From positions 1 through 46,929 of the IMG/VR virus record IMGVR_UViG_2703718815_000012: a stretch of DNA of 46,929 nt. One strand, given 5' to 3'. The stretch comes from a virus. Its lineage: Duplodnaviria > Heunggongvirae > Uroviricota > Caudoviricetes. Below the pieces are notes generated by a model that worked only from the letters and a program-made list of their open reading frames with translations, searched no databases and was not told the origin of the DNA. The position numbers and the translations under genes are program-made. Below are positions 1,615-46,929 of the stretch, one piece after another; the first letter of the stretch is position 1; every line of letters begins with the position of its first letter.

Positions 1615-3753
1615 TCAAATCGCTGTGGTTGTGTATGTTACTTTAGTCCCTGAGGCGGTCCCTGACTTACCTATAGTTGCAAAAGCCTCGTCGCAGGTTG
1701 CTGTGGTATTCCCTGTTAGGTTGATATGAGTTGCTCCGTAACCTCCAGTGATGATGTTGGAAGATGTTTTAACTGTTGCGCTATTGTTTATCACCACTGC
1801 TAAATCCGTCCCTGAACTTAACAGAACTGAATCCCGCAGGACTAATCTCGCGCAATTGTCAAAGTACAACCCCCTGCCAGTTCCCTGAGATACATAGTAA
1901 TTATCAACCACTAGACCAGGGCAAATTGCGGCATATAGAGCGTAGTAGTCGGTAGTAAGCCCAACATACTCAGATGAAGATATACTGCATCTGTCACCAT
2001 AGTAAATAGAATACAAGCAACCGCTCCCTCTGGAGATGTTACCGACGAGCTTGACGGCTATAGAATATGTTGAGTCCACTTCATTTCTTGCAACTGATAT
2101 GCAGACTGGTGCCAGGCATGACTGGAATACATTGTCTGATATGGTCCCACTTTGGCACCCTGAAGCCCTGAGAATGCTTAGTGGATTCTCCTGTGATACA
2201 ACGCCACCAGATGCAGGGGCGGTTGTTCCTCCACATGTATGGAATATATTAGCGTTAAAACTAAACCCATTGGCACCGTTAACTATTACAGGTCTAATTA
2301 TCCCATTAAAAAAGTTTCCATCCAACTTCAGTGTTGTCTGTGTTTGTGAGTAAGGAAGAATGTAAATCCCGTAATACCAGTCGGTAGTATTTCCCCCATA
2401 AATGTTATTATTGACTATACTTAAGCGATCATACCCACCCTTCCAGCTAATTGGTATTCTGCACCTTATAAATGTATTGTTTGATATTTGCGTATTAATG
2501 GTAACATGACTTGTACTGTCATCAGCCAAAATCCCTGAATCACTATCTTCAATGTAATTATTAACTATTCGTATATTTCTGTTGCCAGTATTATGAATGG
2601 AAATCCCACAGTATGCCGAGTTCCTAACCGTGCATCCATCAATCAGGCAGTCATAACCGTATGACCATCCTGCTGTCCCTGCTGCGTCATAGGATATAGG
2701 CAAAATATTTCCTGCGGAATCGCTAGCTTCTGAAGCATTAGGATAACTTGCAACATCGATCTGAAAAGCAGCGCTGTTGGTTCCTTCTGACCAGCAGTTA
2801 ATTACTTTCCAATACTGGCACCCAGCCCCATCCCATAAATGCCAGTGGAGATATTTGCTTCCAACATTAAACAGGGTTATGTGCCTTGCCCTGTTAGCTC
2901 CAATTCCGTTTCCTCGACCAACAGGCCCGCTAACCACTAAATTCATGAAAATGACACGCTCAGTAAATGCGGCATATGATTGGAAGGTCGCAGGCTGAAG
3001 TGCAGAGCCGTTCGTAGTATTGCTATCGTGAAATAAACAGGCTCCCTGCCCATCAACAACCAAATTGCTTCCATATAGCGTGGTATAAGTAGTTCGATAC
3101 GTTTTCCCGGGTGAGAACACGATCTTGCCGCCACCAGCTGCAATGGCAGCCTGGAAGCATGCGTAAATTGCTGCAGTATCATCGGTCCCGTTACCCACAG
3201 TTCCGTTACTATCACCCTTAGCTCCACCAGCAAATTGCGGGTCATCAACACTAAAAACGCGTGAATGCACGGAAAGAATACTGTTGAGCTCCTGCTGAAC
3301 AGTCTTTCCATCAGAGTGTTTGATTAACGATGTGCCTGGCAATGATGAACTATAGAGTTGGCCGCGTAGTGTGGCATCACCTACCGACAGCCATGCACCA
3401 ACACCAATGCCGCCAGTTGAAGTTGGTGTAGAGCCAGGAGGTACCACCTTGCCACTCACAGGAAAAGCCCCACCCCAGCGATAATACTCGCCAGTTGCCT
3501 CAAGGCGAAGAACCTCATTAGGCAAGGTGAGGATCGCACCATCTTCGAAACTATCAATTGTGATGTAGCCGAAGGCGGCCATTGTCTGCTGGGCTAACCA
3601 ACGAAGACCTTCGATTGTATAGTGCTCACCACCAAAGCGGTCTGTGTATTTCAAACCTGATGAGGTTACGAACTCGTCAATTTTCCCGGCATTAAACTTC
3701 AGATCGCGCGGTGATTCGCTTGGTACAGGCTGGTTTGTAGGTTGCGTAGCCAT
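1615..3753 (-). CDS. tailspike / tail fibre with C-terminal right-handed beta-helix (pectate-lyase-like, probable polysaccharide depolymerase)
   Basis: 712-aa ORF at distal end of tail module; Gly/Asn/Ser/Thr-rich repetitive beta-strand sequence with repeated I/V-x-N-N turns. Confidence 0.65.
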   Translation of the reverse strand: MATQPTNQPVPSESPRDLKFNAGKIDEFVTSSGLKYTDRFGGEHYTIEGLRWLAQQTMAAFGYITIDSFEDGAILTLPNEVLRLEATGEYYRWGGAFPVSGKVVPPGSTPTSTGGIGVGAWLSVGDATLRGQLYSSSLPGTSLIKHSDGKTVQQELNSILSVHSRVFSVDDPQFAGGAKGDSNGTVGNGTDDTAAIYACFQAAIAAGGGKIVFSPGKTYRTTYTTLYGSNLVVDGQGACLFHDSNTTNGSALQPATFQSYAAFTERVIFMNLVVSGPVGRGNGIGANRARHITLFNVGSKYLHWHLWDGAGCQYWKVINCWSEGTNSAAFQIDVASYPNASEASDSAGNILPISYDAAGTAGWSYGYDCLIDGCTVRNSAYCGISIHNTGNRNIRIVNNYIEDSDSGILADDSTSHVTINTQISNNTFIRCRIPISWKGGYDRLSIVNNNIYGGNTTDWYYGIYILPYSQTQTTLKLDGNFFNGIIRPVIVNGANGFSFNANIFHTCGGTTAPASGGVVSQENPLSILRASGCQSGTISDNVFQSCLAPVCISVARNEVDSTYSIAVKLVGNISRGSGCLYSIYYGDRCSISSSEYVGLTTDYYALYAAICPGLVVDNYYVSQGTGRGLYFDNCARLVLRDSVLLSSGTDLAVVINNSATVKTSSNIITGGYGATHINLTGNTTATCDEAFATIGKSGTASGTKVTYTTTAI

Positions 3754-3764
3754 ATTGATTCCAT

Positions 3765-3790
3765 AAAAAAACCCGGCGCAGTGGCCGGGT
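3765..3790 (-). terminator. intrinsic terminator-like hairpin between tail-tip gene and tailspike gene
   Basis: minus strand reads cccggc-cactgc-gccggg followed by TTTTTTTAT, about 20 nt after the stop at 3812. Confidence 0.5.
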
Positions 3791-3811
3791 CAGGTTGGTC
3801 GGGGACGGTTC

Positions 3812-6289
3812 TTATTGGTAGATGGCGTCGCTGTACTCCGCGACCGTCAGTGAAACCGTATTATCTGTGTTCGGTTTGATGCTGTTGACCGTCCATAGCT
3901 GACTGTCCAGTTCCTCCACTGTCGCAATGAGATAGCGCGACGGGAGCTGCACAGTGTCTCCGTTCCATATATTGAGCTGAATGTCTGGTAGTGCCGCGGT
4001 GAAGCCGTACTTCGTGTCGCTGCGGGCCGTCGCCGGATAGCGCAGCGTCGGATTACCCAGGCTGTCGGTCACCAGCACGTACATTGAACCGGTAAACGCG
4101 ATCGGCTCGCTTGTATCGAAGTTATTCCCGGCGCGGCCGGTGATGTACCCCTGCTGCTGGTTGCTGTCGTAGATGTCAGGCATCTGAATGACGCTGCCAA
4201 CCTGGATAATGCCGTCTTCGAACACTTTGGCGTTCATCTTCACCCGGGAGTAGATGAGGCGCTTGGTTTCGCGTAATGCGCGCTCACGCGCCTGATACTC
4301 GTTACGGAAGCCGACTATCTCCAACTTATTGGGGTTCTCCGCTTCCTGTTCAACGATAGTGCCGTTCAGCACGCGGTAGTTGATGTACGTCTTATTGTTC
4401 GTGGTTGGGTGAACATAGGACACCTGCACACCGTCGTAGCCGCCAGGAAGAGTGGCCTCGTACGTCATTTTGTACTCGTCCGTCTTCATGTTGGCCCGGT
4501 TGAATACGGCCGCCGGGTAATCAACTTTCTGATCCCTGGTAAAGGTCAGCACGCCGTCATCCCAGTACGCCACCACTGACGCCGCATTGCAGATCGCCTG
4601 CACGCGGTCGCCCAGCGAGTCGTTCTCGTCATCAAACGTGTAGTCGAAATAACCCAGGCGCTCATCAGGCAGGCTTTCAGCAATCGAGTACAGCCCGTAC
4701 AGGTCAATGCTGCTGACCGGCTGCCCACCCATAATCAGCCAGGTGTGTGCTACTGCATCAGCGAACGAACGCGAAGGACGCAGCGTGTAATCCACCGTCT
4801 GCGTGTCCAGGTCGTATGTGATGGTATGACGCGTCACCAGGGCGTTGTATTTGCGGTCACGGCTTCCGAGGGCGTTCTCTGTCGCCCTTACCTTCACGCG
4901 CACCAGCGTATCGGTTGGATGCACTACGTTGGTTCTGACGTTGACCGAGTGGATCTCCTCAACCTTCAGGATAGAAGCATCACTTGAGTTATCTGTGCGC
5001 TGGAAGTTAATGGCGTACTTGCCGAAACCGCCGGTCGGCGTCAGCTTGTCAGTGCGATAAAACACTTCGCTGGATGATTTGTGCGGCGTCCCCTGGTGAT
5101 ACGTGAACGTCTGCTGAGTACCCGGCACCTGGTTGTAGTCATCGTCAATCTTCCAGATCGTGACCTTCCAGTCGGCTGACTTTTTGCCGCCCACTTGCAC
5201 CTGAGTGTGCAGCCACAACTGAGAAGACTCGACCGGCGAGAAGAACGGGCCTACCACGAGCGCTTCGTTATCGTTGAGGATGAATTTCGTCGTGTTGATT
5301 GTCGCCGTTGCCGGCACGTCAGGAGGGCCAATCAGATCCCCCATCGTGAATGTGTACCACCGGACCGGGTTAACAACCGCGCCGTCGTTAGTTTCGACAG
5401 CTGAAATCAGCGTACCGGAGAAATCGACATCCTGCGTGACATTTCCGGTTGGCGTGCTGTAGGTGACGTTAATCGTGAATGTAACCGCATGCGGAAGGAC
5501 GAGGCCCATGAAGTAATCAAACTCAGCCTGCTTGATGATTTTTACTGCAATCTGCCCGCCGGAGTAAGTTCCGCTCACAACCGTATTGGCGGTGGCTGTC
5601 TCGATCGGGAAATTGTCCGATTCGTTTTGGCCAGGCACTTCCTGCCCGTCGACGTCGTCGAACCCGTAGCCTTCGTTGATGGTGGGGATCACTTCGCCAG
5701 GCTGGTAAAACTGAAACTCTGCACCGGCCATGCTTCCGAGGCTGGACTCTGAATAACGCACAGATTCGTAATCGTATTTGCCGATCCCGATGCACATCCA
5801 TTCAGTAACGTATTTCAGGCCGCCATCCGTGTCGCTCTGGCGCACATATTCGAACAAAGATTCCTGAATCAGGTCCGGGAACGAGCGGATTTGCCCGTAA
5901 ATGTCCGGTTTTGCTTTATAGACGCGCGCAGTATTCGTCTGGCCGGTCAGGCTATTGTTTGGCGAGTCAATCGTGTTGCCGCCGGTATTAGCGATCGCCG
6001 GTTTGGGAGCAAGGAACGAGAAGACCGCGCCGACAACTTTGAAAATCGGGCTGAGAATGTCGCCAATGATACCCTTCGGCTGGTCGAATATCTGGATGGT
6101 GTCCAGTTCGCATAGCTCAAACGCCAGTTCATCATCTTCGCTCAGCTTTACGCCATTGCGGACGATCAGCAGGTCGCGGTGGAAAGTAGCGTCATTGGCC
6201 TCCAGCCAGTCATAAAAAAGGGTGCCGTTTGGCACCCTGTAGCGTTCTTTTGGCGTTCCCGGGAAACGCTGGAGTTCAATCAACGCCAT
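3812..6289 (-). CDS. tail tip / host-specificity protein (central fibre, gpJ analogue of T1/GTA-type tails)
   Basis: 825-aa ORF immediately downstream of the tail NlpC/P60 peptidase gene; assignment by size and synteny. Confidence 0.55.
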   Translation of the reverse strand: MALIELQRFPGTPKERYRVPNGTLFYDWLEANDATFHRDLLIVRNGVKLSEDDELAFELCELDTIQIFDQPKGIIGDILSPIFKVVGAVFSFLAPKPAIANTGGNTIDSPNNSLTGQTNTARVYKAKPDIYGQIRSFPDLIQESLFEYVRQSDTDGGLKYVTEWMCIGIGKYDYESVRYSESSLGSMAGAEFQFYQPGEVIPTINEGYGFDDVDGQEVPGQNESDNFPIETATANTVVSGTYSGGQIAVKIIKQAEFDYFMGLVLPHAVTFTINVTYSTPTGNVTQDVDFSGTLISAVETNDGAVVNPVRWYTFTMGDLIGPPDVPATATINTTKFILNDNEALVVGPFFSPVESSQLWLHTQVQVGGKKSADWKVTIWKIDDDYNQVPGTQQTFTYHQGTPHKSSSEVFYRTDKLTPTGGFGKYAINFQRTDNSSDASILKVEEIHSVNVRTNVVHPTDTLVRVKVRATENALGSRDRKYNALVTRHTITYDLDTQTVDYTLRPSRSFADAVAHTWLIMGGQPVSSIDLYGLYSIAESLPDERLGYFDYTFDDENDSLGDRVQAICNAASVVAYWDDGVLTFTRDQKVDYPAAVFNRANMKTDEYKMTYEATLPGGYDGVQVSYVHPTTNNKTYINYRVLNGTIVEQEAENPNKLEIVGFRNEYQARERALRETKRLIYSRVKMNAKVFEDGIIQVGSVIQMPDIYDSNQQQGYITGRAGNNFDTSEPIAFTGSMYVLVTDSLGNPTLRYPATARSDTKYGFTAALPDIQLNIWNGDTVQLPSRYLIATVEELDSQLWTVNSIKPNTDNTVSLTVAEYSDAIYQ

Positions 6290-43347: not shown

Positions 43348-43694
43348 TGGATTACACCAAACTCAGTGACGGTGAAATAAGTGTAAGGCTCGCATATTTC
43401 CTGAAGCCAAAGTACACCGCCACTATTCACCCGCATGAAAAGACCGGTGCCAATTTGTCGTGGAACTGGTTTAACACGGTACAGAACACCGCCTGGTTTC
43501 CGTTACGTCGTGCCGAAGAGATCTACCCGGCAATGAAGAAGCATCGAATCGGTCTGGTACCATTAGGTAAGACCGTGTGGCAGGCAACTCATGAGTCTGG
43601 TGTCAGCTCGACTCACCGTAACCCGCTGCGTGCTGTGGCAATCGTCTACCTCATTTTGCAGGAGTCAGCCAATGTTCAGGATAATCCAGCCTAA
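43347..43694 (+). CDS. hypothetical protein (115 aa)
   Basis: ATG overlaps upstream stop. Confidence 0.45.
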   Translation: MDYTKLSDGEISVRLAYFLKPKYTATIHPHEKTGANLSWNWFNTVQNTAWFPLRRAEEIYPAMKKHRIGLVPLGKTVWQATHESGVSSTHRNPLRAVAIVYLILQESANVQDNPA

Positions 43695-43986
43695 TACTTG
43701 GTACGCCGACATGTTTGGTGAACCCTGCAAAATCCTCCGCGCTACCCACGAAGTAATCCACTACATCCGCAACGGTCGCACCTGCATCGCCAGCATTGGC
43801 CGCTTTCAACATGAATTCGAGCCGCTGACCAAAGCACAGGCTGAGCGGATCGCCGAAGAAATCGAAACAGCAGAGCACATCGAAAAATTAAGGAGCATGA
43901 GACGTGATCGGAATACTCAAGCCGGTACCGGAATCGCAATGGCCGGTACGATGCCACGACCCCAAGCGGAGCAACGTGTGGGCTAA
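43672..43986 (+). CDS. hypothetical protein (104 aa)
   Basis: ATG 43672 with AGGAG SD; overlaps next ORF by 83 nt, so one boundary may be wrong. Confidence 0.3.
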   Translation: MFRIIQPNTWYADMFGEPCKILRATHEVIHYIRNGRTCIASIGRFQHEFEPLTKAQAERIAEEIETAEHIEKLRSMRRDRNTQAGTGIAMAGTMPRPQAEQRVG

Positions 43987-44236
43987 CTCTTACTTTCTTG
44001 TTCAGGAGTTTCAGGAAGAGAACGGTGTTATTCGCCTGACGGTGAACACCACCAGCATTGGCAGCTCTGACCGGTGGAAGGATGGCATCAGTTGGGATGC
44101 ATTGCAGGAGATAAAGTCAGCCGTTGGCTATGGGGATCGGGATGCCGTGGAGATTTACCCGCGGGATTATGATGTGGTGAACGTGGCGAACATGCGCCAC
44201 CTGTGGATTACGCCGGAGCCAATTAGCTTCGCCTAG
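43904..44236 (+). CDS. hypothetical protein (110 aa)
   Basis: GTG start preceded by AAGGAG SD. Confidence 0.4.
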   Translation: MIGILKPVPESQWPVRCHDPKRSNVWANSYFLVQEFQEENGVIRLTVNTTSIGSSDRWKDGISWDALQEIKSAVGYGDRDAVEIYPRDYDVVNVANMRHLWITPEPISFA

Positions 44237-44335
44237 CGGAAGTAAACAGCATCAGCGCATCGCCGTGTGGCGGGTGACATCCCGCCAAATAACGACGATC
44301 AACTGAACATCAACACATTATATGTACATACGACC

Positions 44336-45427
44336 ATGAACATTCAGATCAAAACACTATCTGTCCGAATTAAAGACAAGCACGCAGCCGTTTTGCGGCA
44401 GATGGCCTTTGAGGTCAATCAGATCTTTAATCTGGCAAACGAGATAACCAGCGTAGCATACGGCAACGCTGGCTTTTTTGGCGCGCAAAAACCGCAATGG
44501 CTATCGGCGTTTGATGTTCAGAAACCGCTCCTTAAAGAGCGAAAAGAGCGCGGGTATACCATCCCCAGCCATACCGTACAGGAAATCGCAGCAATTCACG
44601 GCAAGGCACGGAAGCAATTTAAACGCTCTCGCTTACGCTGGCGAGTCAGTGGGGGATCTCGCCGTTCGTTGGGTTGGGTGCCGTTTAAAATAGGCAGCGC
44701 TGTCTGGAAAAATGGCGCGGTGCGGTTCGCTGGCAGGATTTTTAATGTCTGGGATAGCTACGGCTTGGGAGGATTTAAATTCCGTGCTGGAAGCTTTTCA
44801 GAAGACAGCCGTGGACGCTGGTACTTCAATGTTTGCGTAGAGGTCGAAACTGTCCCATCAACGGCCACTTCCGCCGTGGGTATCGATTTAGGGCTGAAAG
44901 ACTACGCCACCCCGTCAGAAGGTGATCCGCTGATTGCCGGTAGATTCTATCGAGATCTGGAGCCTGCATTAGGAAAGGCACAGCGTGCAAACAAAAAAGC
45001 CCGTGTACGCGCCATACACGCCAAAATTAAGAACCGCCGCAAAGATGCCCTGCACAAGTACAGCACGGCGCTGGTTAACAGCCATGCGGCAATATTCGTA
45101 GGCGACGCGAGCAGTAAGAAACTGGTTAAAACCAAAATGGCAAAAAGCATTTTGGACGCTGGCTGGTTCATGCTCAAAACACAACTGGAATATAAAGCGA
45201 TTGCGCGGTCAGTGGTGTTTGAAGTGGTCAACGAAAGTTATTCCACCCAAGCTTGTTCGTGTTGCGGGGCTATCTCCGCCAACAGTCCGAAAGGTAGAGC
45301 AGGCCTGCGAATAAGAGAATGGACTTGTTGTGAGTGCGGAACCACTCATGACCGCGACGTGAACGCCGCAAAGAACATTCTCGCGGCGGGGCATCGCCGT
45401 CTAGCTGTAGGAATCCCCTTCCTTTAG
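44336..45427 (+). CDS. tnpB: TnpB (IS200/IS605 OrfB-type RuvC-like RNA-guided endonuclease)
   Basis: RuvC-I GIDLG, C-terminal zinc finger CSCCG...CCECG, RuvC-III RDVNAAKNI; ATG 44336. Confidence 0.75.
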   Translation: MNIQIKTLSVRIKDKHAAVLRQMAFEVNQIFNLANEITSVAYGNAGFFGAQKPQWLSAFDVQKPLLKERKERGYTIPSHTVQEIAAIHGKARKQFKRSRLRWRVSGGSRRSLGWVPFKIGSAVWKNGAVRFAGRIFNVWDSYGLGGFKFRAGSFSEDSRGRWYFNVCVEVETVPSTATSAVGIDLGLKDYATPSEGDPLIAGRFYRDLEPALGKAQRANKKARVRAIHAKIKNRRKDALHKYSTALVNSHAAIFVGDASSKKLVKTKMAKSILDAGWFMLKTQLEYKAIARSVVFEVVNESYSTQACSCCGAISANSPKGRAGLRIREWTCCECGTTHDRDVNAAKNILAAGHRRLAVGIPFL

Positions 45428-45510
45428 GACGGGGAGGATGTCAAGCAACTGATAGCCAGTTATGAGCTGGCTATTGGGTGCGAAAGCACTGCTCAGTTAT
45501 CCCCCATTTT

Positions 45511-45538
45511 GCCCGGCCCCGCGCCGGGCGCTCTTTTT
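45511..45538 (+). terminator. hairpin plus U-tract at right end of IS element
   Basis: gcccggc-cccgc-gccgggc followed by GCTCTTTTT. Confidence 0.5.
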
Positions 45539-45551
45539 CTGGAGATCACAG

Positions 45552-45767
45552 ATGAATGACAGCATCCTGGTTACAAGCGAAATCCTTGCGCGCTACAAAA
45601 TATCGCGCAGCACGCTCTATTTCTGGAGCACTCCCGCACGTATGCCATCCAGCTTTTCATGCCCATTCCCGAAACCAACCATCCCCGGAAATCCGAAGCG
45701 CTGGCGTGAGTCAGAAATCAAGTCATGGGAAGACAAGGTCAACTTTGCTAAAGGGGATACCCAATAA
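45552..45767 (+). CDS. AlpA-family excisionase / transcriptional regulator
   Basis: ATG 45552; ILARYKISRSTLYFW...FPKP...PKRWRESEIKSW resembles AlpA/Xis HTH family; converges on integrase. Confidence 0.6.
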   Translation: MNDSILVTSEILARYKISRSTLYFWSTPARMPSSFSCPFPKPTIPGNPKRWRESEIKSWEDKVNFAKGDTQ

Positions 45768-46929
45768 TCTCCTGCAAATGCTTCTGCCAGATATCCAGCC
45801 ATTCATGCTGATCGTCCATATAGTCATGAAGGTTGTATCTGGCCATAACCCCGCCCATCTGATGTCCGAGCAACTTTTCTATAACGTGTGGTGGAGCGCC
45901 AAGCTCGGACAGGCGCGTGGCCACCGTTCTCCGCAAATCATGTAATGACCACTCCTTCATTCCGTTCTTACGCACTACCTGCATTGAGTACGTCGAGACA
46001 AGCGTCTGCCCAGGTGGGACATCTTCTTTATCCCGGAACTGTGCTGGAGTCAGAACGTGCTTAGTGATTGATCCGCGTTGATGCTCTTGCAGAAGCCTGA
46101 CCGCAGTATCCGGCAACGCACGACGAATAGTTTTACCGGTCTTATAATCCTCTGCCGGCACAGTCCATGACCTTTCTTTGAAATCGAACCACTCCCATCT
46201 CGACTTTCTTATTTCTGCGGCGCGGCATCCGGTTAGAATCATGAACCTGATTACCAGTTGTTGAGAGGGAGGCAGAGAGAAAAGAGTATCCCACACCTGC
46301 TTTATCTCACTATCTGAAAGCCGCCTCTCCTTCATCTTCGCTGCTATACCGACATCCGATTTTCGTAACGACTCCAGTGGATTGGTTTTGATTACTCCCC
46401 TGTTGTGGCAGAACCGGAAAGCACGCTTGGTCAGAGACAGCATCTCACCTGATATGACACTCCTCCCCATTGCATCGAAAACCTCAAGCCAGTTCGCCTT
46501 CACTGTCTGGTCCACAATAGCCTTCCCTAGCCGCGGGCTAATGTGCTTTTTGAAGCTTTTACCGTTCGCATCAATTTTAATGAGCCCCTCCGGGATACAG
46601 TAATGCTTCACCCAGTACTCATAGGCCTCATCGACTGTCAGCGCTTCTATTCTTTCAGCCTTCTCCACCAGCACTTTCTGCCGGGGATCATACCCCTCGC
46701 TCAACCACGCTCTGAACTGCTGTCTTCTGTCTCTCGCCTGAGAGAGTGAAATAGTTGGATAGTCACCAATGCTTAACTGCACAGGCTTGCCCTGCCAGCG
46801 ATACCGATAGAAGAATGTGATAGAACCGGTTATGCTTAGACGCACATTCAGTCCGTTTGAATCAGAGAGAACCTCAACCTTCTCCCTGCGCTTTCCGAGC
46901 GACTTTCGTAACTTAGTATCTGTGAGCAC
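45748..46929 (-). CDS. int: tyrosine integrase (P4-type); 5' end at or just beyond window edge
   Basis: N-terminal LTDTKLRK...YRYRWQGKPVQLSIGDYP arm-type domain and C-terminal catalytic region HDLRRT...LLGH...Y; ORF runs to the last base of the window. Confidence 0.85.
   Translation of the reverse strand: MLTDTKLRKSLGKRREKVEVLSDSNGLNVRLSITGSITFFYRYRWQGKPVQLSIGDYPTISLSQARDRRQQFRAWLSEGYDPRQKVLVEKAERIEALTVDEAYEYWVKHYCIPEGLIKIDANGKSFKKHISPRLGKAIVDQTVKANWLEVFDAMGRSVISGEMLSLTKRAFRFCHNRGVIKTNPLESLRKSDVGIAAKMKERRLSDSEIKQVWDTLFSLPPSQQLVIRFMILTGCRAAEIRKSRWEWFDFKERSWTVPAEDYKTGKTIRRALPDTAVRLLQEHQRGSITKHVLTPAQFRDKEDVPPGQTLVSTYSMQVVRKNGMKEWSLHDLRRTVATRLSELGAPPHVIEKLLGHQMGGVMARYNLHDYMDDQHEWLDIWQKHLQEIIGYPL

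Follow-up and report, generated by a model that had tools for sequence, protein, structure and literature searches.

A one-ended IS200/IS605 tnpB copy in an Escherichia coli prophage and its predicted target in tnpB-less relatives

The viral record IMGVR_UViG_2703718815_000012 of IMG/VR, analysed here over its full 46,929 nucleotides (nt; hereafter the window), carries near its right-hand end a tnpB gene of the IS200/IS605 group of insertion sequences (ISs), located in a prophage of Escherichia coli. The best explanation found for this locus, and one that is favoured here with somewhat more confidence than doubt, is that of a stranded IS200/IS605 copy—that is, one that has kept an intact tnpB and likely encodes an active RNA-guided nuclease directed against the vacant allele of related phages. 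The first-pass annotation of this DNA, made from its letters, had described an IS200/IS605-type tnpB without tnpA between the early-left accessory genes and xis/int, and this description holds. Indeed, a tblastn search of the 46.9-kb window with the TnpA of an 85%-identical relative gave no match with an E value below 0.35.

The tnpB gene is real, and its product is identified as a TnpB by both profile and fold. The protein matches the Pfam families PF07282 (Cas12f1-like_TNB; 77.7 bits, cut-off 26.3) and PF01385 (OrfB_IS605; 48.8 bits, cut-off 30.5), and the NCBIfam model guided_TnpB (NF040570) scores 228 bits on it, with a cut-off of 100. An AlphaFold2 model of the protein, with a mean predicted local distance difference test (pLDDT) value of 76, was superposed over its full length on the ISDra2 TnpB ternary complex (8h1j) with a TM score of 0.71; the sequence alignment to ISDra2 TnpB covers residues 160-349 only. 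More than 7,500 homologs were found, most of them 363 amino acids (aa) long, the modal length of the family. The open reading frame (ORF) has an alternative upstream start, GTG at 44267, and this is the start used in RefSeq (386 aa); the start used consistently in the family is the ATG at 44336 (363 aa), and the 23 extra codons of the RefSeq version traverse the remnant of the left end described below. In the prophage lineage, the ORF is intact in all of the approximately 15 full-length copies seen, with at most three amino acid differences; these copies differ by 0-1 synonymous and 1-3 nonsynonymous changes, which are too few for an informative dN/dS.

Ends of the copy, guide and vacant allele

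The features of the copy itself, and the flank that would supply its guide, are as follows.

44247-44335, plus strand: truncated left end, residual inner part; phage homology ends at 44242-44246, and the remainder was assigned by alignment to the Salmonella copy L284
44268-44287, plus strand: inner left-end hairpin (-14.3 kcal/mol, z = -2.7)
44336-45427, plus strand: tnpB coding sequence, from ATG, 363 aa plus stop (TAG at 45425-45427)
45414-45435, plus strand: right-end subterminal hairpin, whose loop contains the stop codon of tnpB, followed by GGAGGATGTCAA to 45444
45445-45460, plus strand: guide-encoding flank GCAACTGATAGCCAGT, comprising the 16 nt directly 3′ of the right end

The right end of the window copy was located from both sides. 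Similarity to every diverged copy stops at 45444 (...GGAGGATGTCAA), and every related tnpB-less prophage starts matching the window at 45445; therefore, the right end is at 45444. All family copies terminate in ...GGAATCCCC-stem-TTTAG-stem-GGGGAGGATGTCAA, a terminus that is the same in about 100 copies and shows compensatory changes in the stem. The right boundary had been placed in the first-pass annotation at 45560, which is 116 nt too far by comparison with both the family copies and the tnpB-less relatives. The hairpin and U-tract at 45510-45538 that had been taken for the right end do exist, about 13 nt upstream of an AlpA-like gene (ATG at 45552), and are native phage sequence present in phages without tnpB. 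Of the subterminal hairpins proposed for both ends, the right one is real, at 45414-45435, and the left one is an inner hairpin only (44268-44287). The invariant terminus GGAGGATGTCAA (45433-45444 in the window) is also Shine-Dalgarno-like, with an ATG directly after it, at a spacing that seems too short for initiation.

The guide was correctly proposed in the first-pass annotation to be read from flanking prophage DNA, and it would run from 45445 onward, directly 3′ of the right end. A guide length of 16 nt is adopted by analogy with ISDra2. The exact 16-mer was found in at least 120 IMG/VR viral contigs, and one of the matches listed has a right end upstream; at least 119 contigs with the exact guide lack tnpB. 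Among the at least 120 contigs listed, the four nucleotides before the match are TGAC in at least 94, TAAC in at least seven, and TCAC in at least three (together at least 104), and the matches sit behind at least 42 different upstream contexts. The target motif of the IS family, derived from 76 distinct left ends that begin just after it, is T-N-A-C/T; it is mostly TTAC or TTAT, is TCAC in some, and is TGAC in five independent elements.

Comparison with related prophages lacking the insertion, as suggested in the first-pass annotation, was carried out and defined the vacant site as TGAC|GCAACTG.... The right end of the window copy abuts the right border of the slot in which it lies, exactly 3′ of the TGAC position in the vacant allele. 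This footprint is the one expected for an IS200/IS605 insertion 3′ of a tetranucleotide, with the motif itself deleted from the window copy. In the window, the guide flank is preceded by TCAA, the terminus of the right end, and not by T-N-A-C; with the target motif thus replaced, the prophage does not present a target of its own. No second guide site with two or fewer mismatches was found in the window (the host chromosome was not searched). Thus, the sequence arrangement is the one that homing calls for—that is, with a predicted target in the alleles without tnpB, a protected self allele, and homology on both sides.

The left end is represented by its inner part only. The closest relative with a left end is L284, a Salmonella contig with 90% protein identity and the motif TGAC, whose left end reads GGTGAC|CTGGAAGCGCGGCAAGCCCCGTCC.... 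Clear homology to the sequence preceding tnpB in L284 is seen at positions 44317-44335 of the window, and the alignment is weaker from 44317 back to the second left-end hairpin (44268-44287), which lies at the same distance from the start codon in both. Similarity to the other family copies begins at the tnpB ATG or a few bases before it, and a MAFFT alignment of the left region with the prophages MB20 and ET210 showed only tiny similarities and was uninformative. Family left ends carry, after the target motif, a hairpin resembling that of the right end. When a profile of 53 family left ends was run over the whole window, the sole match was the right-end hairpin, and searches for left-end motifs across the whole window likewise found none. 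These comparisons show the element to be 5′-truncated: it lacks the outer ~60 nt of the left end, in which the target motif, the cleavage site, and the hairpin recognised by TnpA would lie. With the outer hairpin and cleavage site absent, the window copy therefore cannot transpose via TnpA.

The TnpB family to which the copy belongs is a genuine IS200/IS605 family, having relatives with Y1 TnpA and many copies. A Psychromonas genome holds at least nine family copies that are ~94% identical to one another, and several other genomes hold two to five. A divergent 136-aa Y1_Tnp gene adjoins the TnpB P0004, which is 85% identical to that of the window; the copies L006 and L007 likewise carry TnpA beside tnpB. 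The relatives with TnpA as a neighbour include TnpBs 85% and 77% identical to that of the window. In two of the copies in the Psychromonas genome, which is metagenome-assembled (L029 and L041), another mobile element of ~1.03 kb, at ~2920-3951, was observed to be inserted inside the left end.

Omega-RNA and RuvC residues

The predicted 3′ domain of the omega-RNA and its helices, all assigned by covariation, are listed here.

45383-45444, plus strand: omega-RNA 3′ domain plus right end, the last 62 nt of the element
45383-89/45394-400, plus strand: helix 1
45401-03/45408-10, plus strand: helix 2
45414-21/45428-35, plus strand: helix 3, the right-end subterminal hairpin

The alignment used comprised the last 230 nt of 59 non-redundant family copies. 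The three helices were found to be paired in 96.3% of cells, compared with 46-56% in controls with slid partners, and to contain 172 double-change cells, compared with 10-40 in the slid controls. Double changes are shown by 14 of the 18 helix pairs, and none of 500 shuffles reached the observed values. Helices 1 and 2 are RNA features rather than TnpA sites, because they lie inside the coding sequence and have no left-end counterpart. Weaker hairpins were detected upstream, at 45331-36/45343-48 and 45265-70/45275-80, by a test of own versus swapped partners, with register slips between sequences; the scaffold is suggested to start at or before ~45262. Further long-range and upstream pairs proposed by RNAalifold (columns 40-184) showed no double changes and were dropped. 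An Rfam scan of 43500-46929 (E ≤ 1) gave a sub-threshold HgcC match at 45266-45457, with 19 bits against a gathering threshold of 50 (E = 0.26), and a snoRNA match that was rejected as spurious. Overall, the covariation identifies a predicted structured 3′ omega-RNA that abuts the guide and overlaps the 3′ end of tnpB.

The residues of the TnpB active site and zinc finger, all encoded on the plus strand, are the following.

44885-87: D184, the RuvC-I Asp, aligning with ISDra2 D191 (GIDLG versus GVDVG)
45101-03: G256, at the canonical RuvC-II position, aligning with ISDra2 E278
45233-35: E300, an alternative Glu 44 residues downstream of G256
45356-58: D341, the RuvC-III Asp (in HDRDVNAA), from the alignment to ISDra2
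C307/C310/C331/C334: CCCC zinc finger (CxxC...CxxC), placed between RuvC-II and RuvC-III, all four Cys invariant in the TnpB family

The RuvC-I and RuvC-III motifs and the C-terminal zinc finger described in the first-pass annotation are thus present, in the form of D184, D341, and the four cysteines; D184 is found in 121 of 121 family sequences and D341 in 119 of 121. The canonical RuvC-II Glu (ISDra2 E278) is missing from the window TnpB, with Gly in its place. In the AlphaFold2 model, G256 lies inside a strand (252-257), and E300 follows directly after another (294-299). Both G256 and E300 are present in all 121 family members examined, down to 62% identity. Nuclease inactivation by this Glu-to-Gly change was suspected at first, and was ruled out by the invariance of the two residues in mobile relatives and by the published description of the RIIr-5 clade. 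Indeed, G256 is not a sign of decay, because G256 and E300 are invariant across the family, including its mobile multi-copy members. The absence of RuvC catalytic residues, which the first-pass annotation had named as grounds for abandoning its proposal, therefore applies in part: the canonical Glu is gone, but D184, E300, and D341 are kept, in a rearrangement that is family-wide. Furthermore, the window TnpB retains the consensus at 119 of the 120 columns conserved at ≥95%, the sole exception being V258A.

RIIr-5, the largest of the rearranged TnpB clades, has Gly instead of the Glu, and a loop that faces the active site supplies a compensating Glu; its members are predicted to be active, with a mobility equal to that of other clades (Altae-Tran et al., 2023, PMC10691335). 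We infer that the G256/E300 pair of the window TnpB is this rearranged, predicted-active arrangement, an assignment that is based on the published motif description and not on tree placement.

Accessory slot, neighbouring genes and spread among phages

The features surrounding the copy are as follows.

43904-44236, plus strand: DUF7694 gene (Pfam DUF7694), left neighbour
45445-45538, plus strand: conserved phage intergenic element, not part of the IS, forming the right border of the slot and holding the TnpB target
45449-61/45465-77, plus strand: 13-bp hairpin within the phage intergenic element
45478-89, plus strand: GNRA-loop hairpin within the same element
45510-38, plus strand: terminator-like hairpin and U-tract within the same element
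45552-45767, plus strand: AlpA/Xis-like helix-turn-helix gene (weak Xis_Gifsy_1 match; RefSeq annotation)
45748-46929, minus strand: tyrosine integrase (profile match)

Comparison with related phages places tnpB in a variable accessory-gene slot upstream of xis. DUF7694 alleles that are 83-97% identical are carried by 12 tnpB-less viral contigs, in which a short conserved hairpin and a ribosome-binding site come after the gene, and then a variable small ORF, of several unrelated kinds. The stop codon of this cassette is followed by the conserved GCAACTGATAGCCAGTTATGAGCTGGCTAT..., and TGAC precedes GCAACTG in most of the 12 contigs. The slot, which extends from DUF7694 to the conserved element, was seen to house at least 42-54 different small cassettes, and the stop codon (TGA or TAA) of most of them overlaps the T-N-A-C motif targeted by the IS family. 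The first 40 nt of the element at 45445-45538 are ≥90% conserved in at least 120 viral contigs, behind dozens of upstream genes. Its terminator-like hairpin lies at the same distance from xis in tnpB-less relatives, and the insertion therefore neither created nor moved the terminator. An effect of the insertion on excision-gene expression, as suggested in the first-pass annotation, thus loses its basis.

The window tnpB allele is always linked to DUF7694, with nine of nine E. coli genomes that have the DUF7694 gene also carrying tnpB. The DUF7694 gene of the window has a private TGG-to-TAG change (44234-44236) three codons before the usual TAA (44243-44245), where XJ55, L73, and strain 53 have TGG. 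On the other side, the xis-like gene (plus strand) and the integrase gene (minus strand) converge, and their 3′ ends overlap by 20 nt (45748-45767); in lambda, xis and int are co-oriented. A prophage located next to yciA-tonB, in E. coli strain 53 and some nine further complete genomes, matches the region at 99.9% identity. A decayed form of the same prophage is present in E. coli A14 (L289), where tnpB breaks off at window position 44554 and is joined to head genes and to a pseudogene of acb1 (anti-CBASS), indicating a large internal deletion.

A block reaching from DUF7694 to ~50-70 nt past the right end was found to be 99.75-99.9% identical across several different phages, in at least four flank contexts. 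Its hosts include phages with the window-type xis/int; XJ55, with a xis/int that is 86% identical; L084, with an MB20-like right flank that is 98-100% identical to the tnpB-less MB20 from 48 nt past the right end; and L73, in which the integration module is another one, at dsdC. The junctions were mapped 41-73 nt past the right end, which is the insertion point, a pattern that is compatible with break-induced conversion at the target and is not specific evidence for homing.

One-ended copies also recur more widely. Across copies with 55-99% protein identity, a left end was detectable in 60 of 68 genome copies and 13 of 27 viral copies (Fisher p = 8e-5), a comparison that is limited by the sensitivity of the left-end profile, and the right-end motif was kept in 63 of 68 and 24 of 27, respectively. 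Four isolated phages—Salmonella LPSTLL, Ralstonia Heva and Hyacinthe, and Acinetobacter HFM1—have tnpB and a right end with no match to the left-end profile. The viral copy L091, 68% identical and without the left-end hairpin, is cleanly inserted, the tnpB start being separated from TTAC by only 19 nt. The corresponding vacant site, consisting of TTAC or TCAC plus the guide, is present in at least 117 of the 120 tnpB-less contigs listed (TTAC alone in at least 113). The enrichment of viral copies lacking a left end, together with this second clean example, would suggest that the one-ended pattern is general.

The L091 insertion (3980-4000, 5097-5125) interrupts a phage gene four bases into its fourth codon, at ATGAGTTTTAC|AGATAACTGG, and splits the 5′ end of that gene. 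Remnants with a right end were observed as well. A 353-bp related tnpB 3′ remnant (L296, 701-1053; 77% identical), which ends exactly at the right end, adjoins ykiE/fecI on at least seven IncF plasmids of E. coli, and right-end-only remnants are present in the Ralstonia phages RpY1 and Eline and in Klebsiella phage FBKp34.

Proposed activity, rival explanations and known systems

The history of the copy, and the activity proposed for it, are as follows. An ancestral element inserted exactly 3′ of TGAC at the right border of the accessory slot, just upstream of the xis terminator of a lambdoid phage, and the outer left end was later lost, with any tnpA and the previous cassette of the slot, leaving 44247-45444 and the flanking guide. 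The tnpB gene points in the same direction as the early-left operon and lacks a promoter-like site of its own; its transcription is therefore probably by read-through from that operon. From the 3′ portion of this transcript, TnpB would then probably generate an omega-RNA with the guide GCAACUGAUAGCCAGU at its end. Together, protein and RNA would cleave double-stranded DNA in which TGAC, TAAC, or TCAC is followed by GCAACTGATAGCCAGT, which is the vacant allele of at least 100 related temperate phages, and would spare the phage's own copy, in which TCAA stands in place of the target motif. If a relative that is co-resident or co-infecting were cut in this way, the break might be repaired from the tnpB-carrying phage, with tnpB and the linked DUF7694 allele being copied (TnpA-independent, 'non-restorative' homing), or the cut might damage a competitor phage (exclusion). 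This homing or exclusion step by an active nuclease, read from sequence, is plausible and the most likely one. A wider proposal, offered only tentatively, is that TnpB/omega-RNA cassettes that have lost TnpA and the left end but not the right end are retained by temperate phages as RNA-guided homing or exclusion nucleases. Such one-ended cassettes would require no transposase to spread among related phages or to exclude them, acting through cleavage of the conserved vacant allele, and the window prophage would be a natural example.

Several observations weigh against an active homing nuclease. No sigma-70-like promoter was found in 43800-45800, and the guide occupies the 5′ arm of the 13-bp hairpin, such that an untrimmed transcript would sequester it. 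The V258A change adjoins G256 and differs from 118 of 120 homologs, and the catalytic competence of the G256/E300 pair is a published prediction; the literature search found no activity, expression, or omega-RNA data for RIIr-5 members. The window allele is present in about 10 of 5,426 complete E. coli genomes, and a strong drive would not obviously be expected to be so rare. Ordinary slot cassettes, examined as a control, are equally mosaic—one type, for instance, occurs in 22 contigs with 15 right-flank clusters—and recombination within the conserved 40-48 nt would produce the same junctions as those observed. Since ordinary cassettes show the same spread, the mosaicism of the block is not counted in support of homing. 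In addition, the guide of the Ralstonia phage Heva has no consistent target motif adjacent to it in tnpB-less contigs.

Much of this would be accommodated if the copy were an inert relic, that is, a decayed IS copy hitch-hiking in the prophage, its TnpB unexpressed or inactive, and shuffled by ordinary recombination at the slot, an alternative that is possible and has an appreciable, although clearly smaller, chance of being correct. Besides the rarity of the allele, the mosaic cassettes, and the lack of a promoter-like site, the truncated left end, the missing tnpA, the truncation of tnpB in the A14 prophage, and the 3′ remnants on IncF plasmids and in phages are as such a relic would have them. 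However, the intact ORF of all the full-length copies, the 119 conserved residues kept out of 120, and the intact terminal motif and three covarying helices are not, and intact one-ended copies recur in phages of several hosts. Such recurrence is unexpected under random decay, which should strike the left end no more often than the ORF or the right end.

Far less probable is a nuclease-dead RNA-guided regulator, domesticated by the phage in the manner of TldR and controlling, for example, xis/int or a host gene. The missing canonical RuvC-II Glu and the immobilised position of the copy beside xis would agree with such a role, but G256 is invariant family-wide, also in multi-copy and TnpA-partnered elements, and D184, E300, and D341 are kept; moreover, the only window match of the guide is its own flank, without the target motif, and the geometry from terminator to xis is the same as in tnpB-less phages. 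A complete, TnpA-mobilisable tnpB-only IS at 44240-45560 with a right-end hairpin or terminator modulating the excision gene, to which the hairpins at both places and the terminator-like site 13 nt from the xis start had pointed, is scarcely tenable, its boundaries being refuted already by a right end at 45444, a terminator of native phage DNA, and the absence of the TnpA-recognised left-end hairpin.

As an object, the element is ordinary: a decayed IS200/IS605 copy in a prophage. Its annotation is corrected here with respect to the start codon, the element boundaries, and the missing RuvC-II Glu, which is a rearrangement and not an inactivation. If the stranded copy does encode an active nuclease, it would be a natural candidate for TnpA-independent TnpB homing between phages, a process shown for plasmids and proposed for phages. 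The donor (the window prophage) and the recipients (MB20-type prophages with the same attachment site) are both present in sequenced E. coli strains, and an E. coli prophage with a defined guide and a defined TGAC motif would be a cheap test system for the large RIIr-5 clade of TnpB.

With respect to known systems, the window TnpB resembles RIIr-5 proteins in having Gly for the RuvC-II Glu and an alternative Glu after the next β-strand, with membership being inferred from the motif description only. The copy shares with ISDra2 and IS608 the TnpB fold, an omega-RNA that overlaps the 3′ terminus of tnpB and stops at the right end, and a guide in the flank, and it differs from them in the lack of a canonical RuvC-II Glu, of TnpA, and of a functional left end. 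The terminal TCAA of the copy and its TTAC-like target motif also resemble those of IS608. ISPa83, the ISfinder name used by the annotators of the Ralstonia phages Heva and Hyacinthe, belongs to the same TnpB family and shows DNA similarity to the same right end; the identity is ~72% over the 3′ 40% only, and the name is second-hand, via those other annotators. TldR is likewise an immobilised TnpB derivative in a prophage context, but the window TnpB keeps a rearranged catalytic triad, and no promoter target was found for it in the window.

The restoration of excised elements driven by TnpB is established. Beyond restoration, experiments have demonstrated that an IS605 insertion can spread through a population of plasmids in a manner that depends on TnpB and not on TnpA (PMC11870625), and 'non-restorative homing' into co-infecting phages has been raised as a theoretical possibility in a 2026 review (PMC13565253); the literature search found no direct study of TnpB homing in phages. 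The likeness of the window prophage to such a plasmid gene drive is that replicon copies without the insertion would be cut, with TnpB and not TnpA being needed, and the difference is that the drive has been demonstrated in plasmids only, the prophage case being read from sequence (PMC11870625; PMC13565253). Finally, as with the free-standing homing endonucleases Seg and Mob of phage T4, known for intronless homing and marker exclusion, a nuclease gene lies between conserved phage genes, its predicted target lies in relatives without the gene, and flanking markers, here the linked DUF7694 allele, would be co-converted. Unlike those enzymes, however, the window TnpB would be RNA-guided, and would tell self from non-self by the insertion, through loss of the motif, rather than by substitutions.

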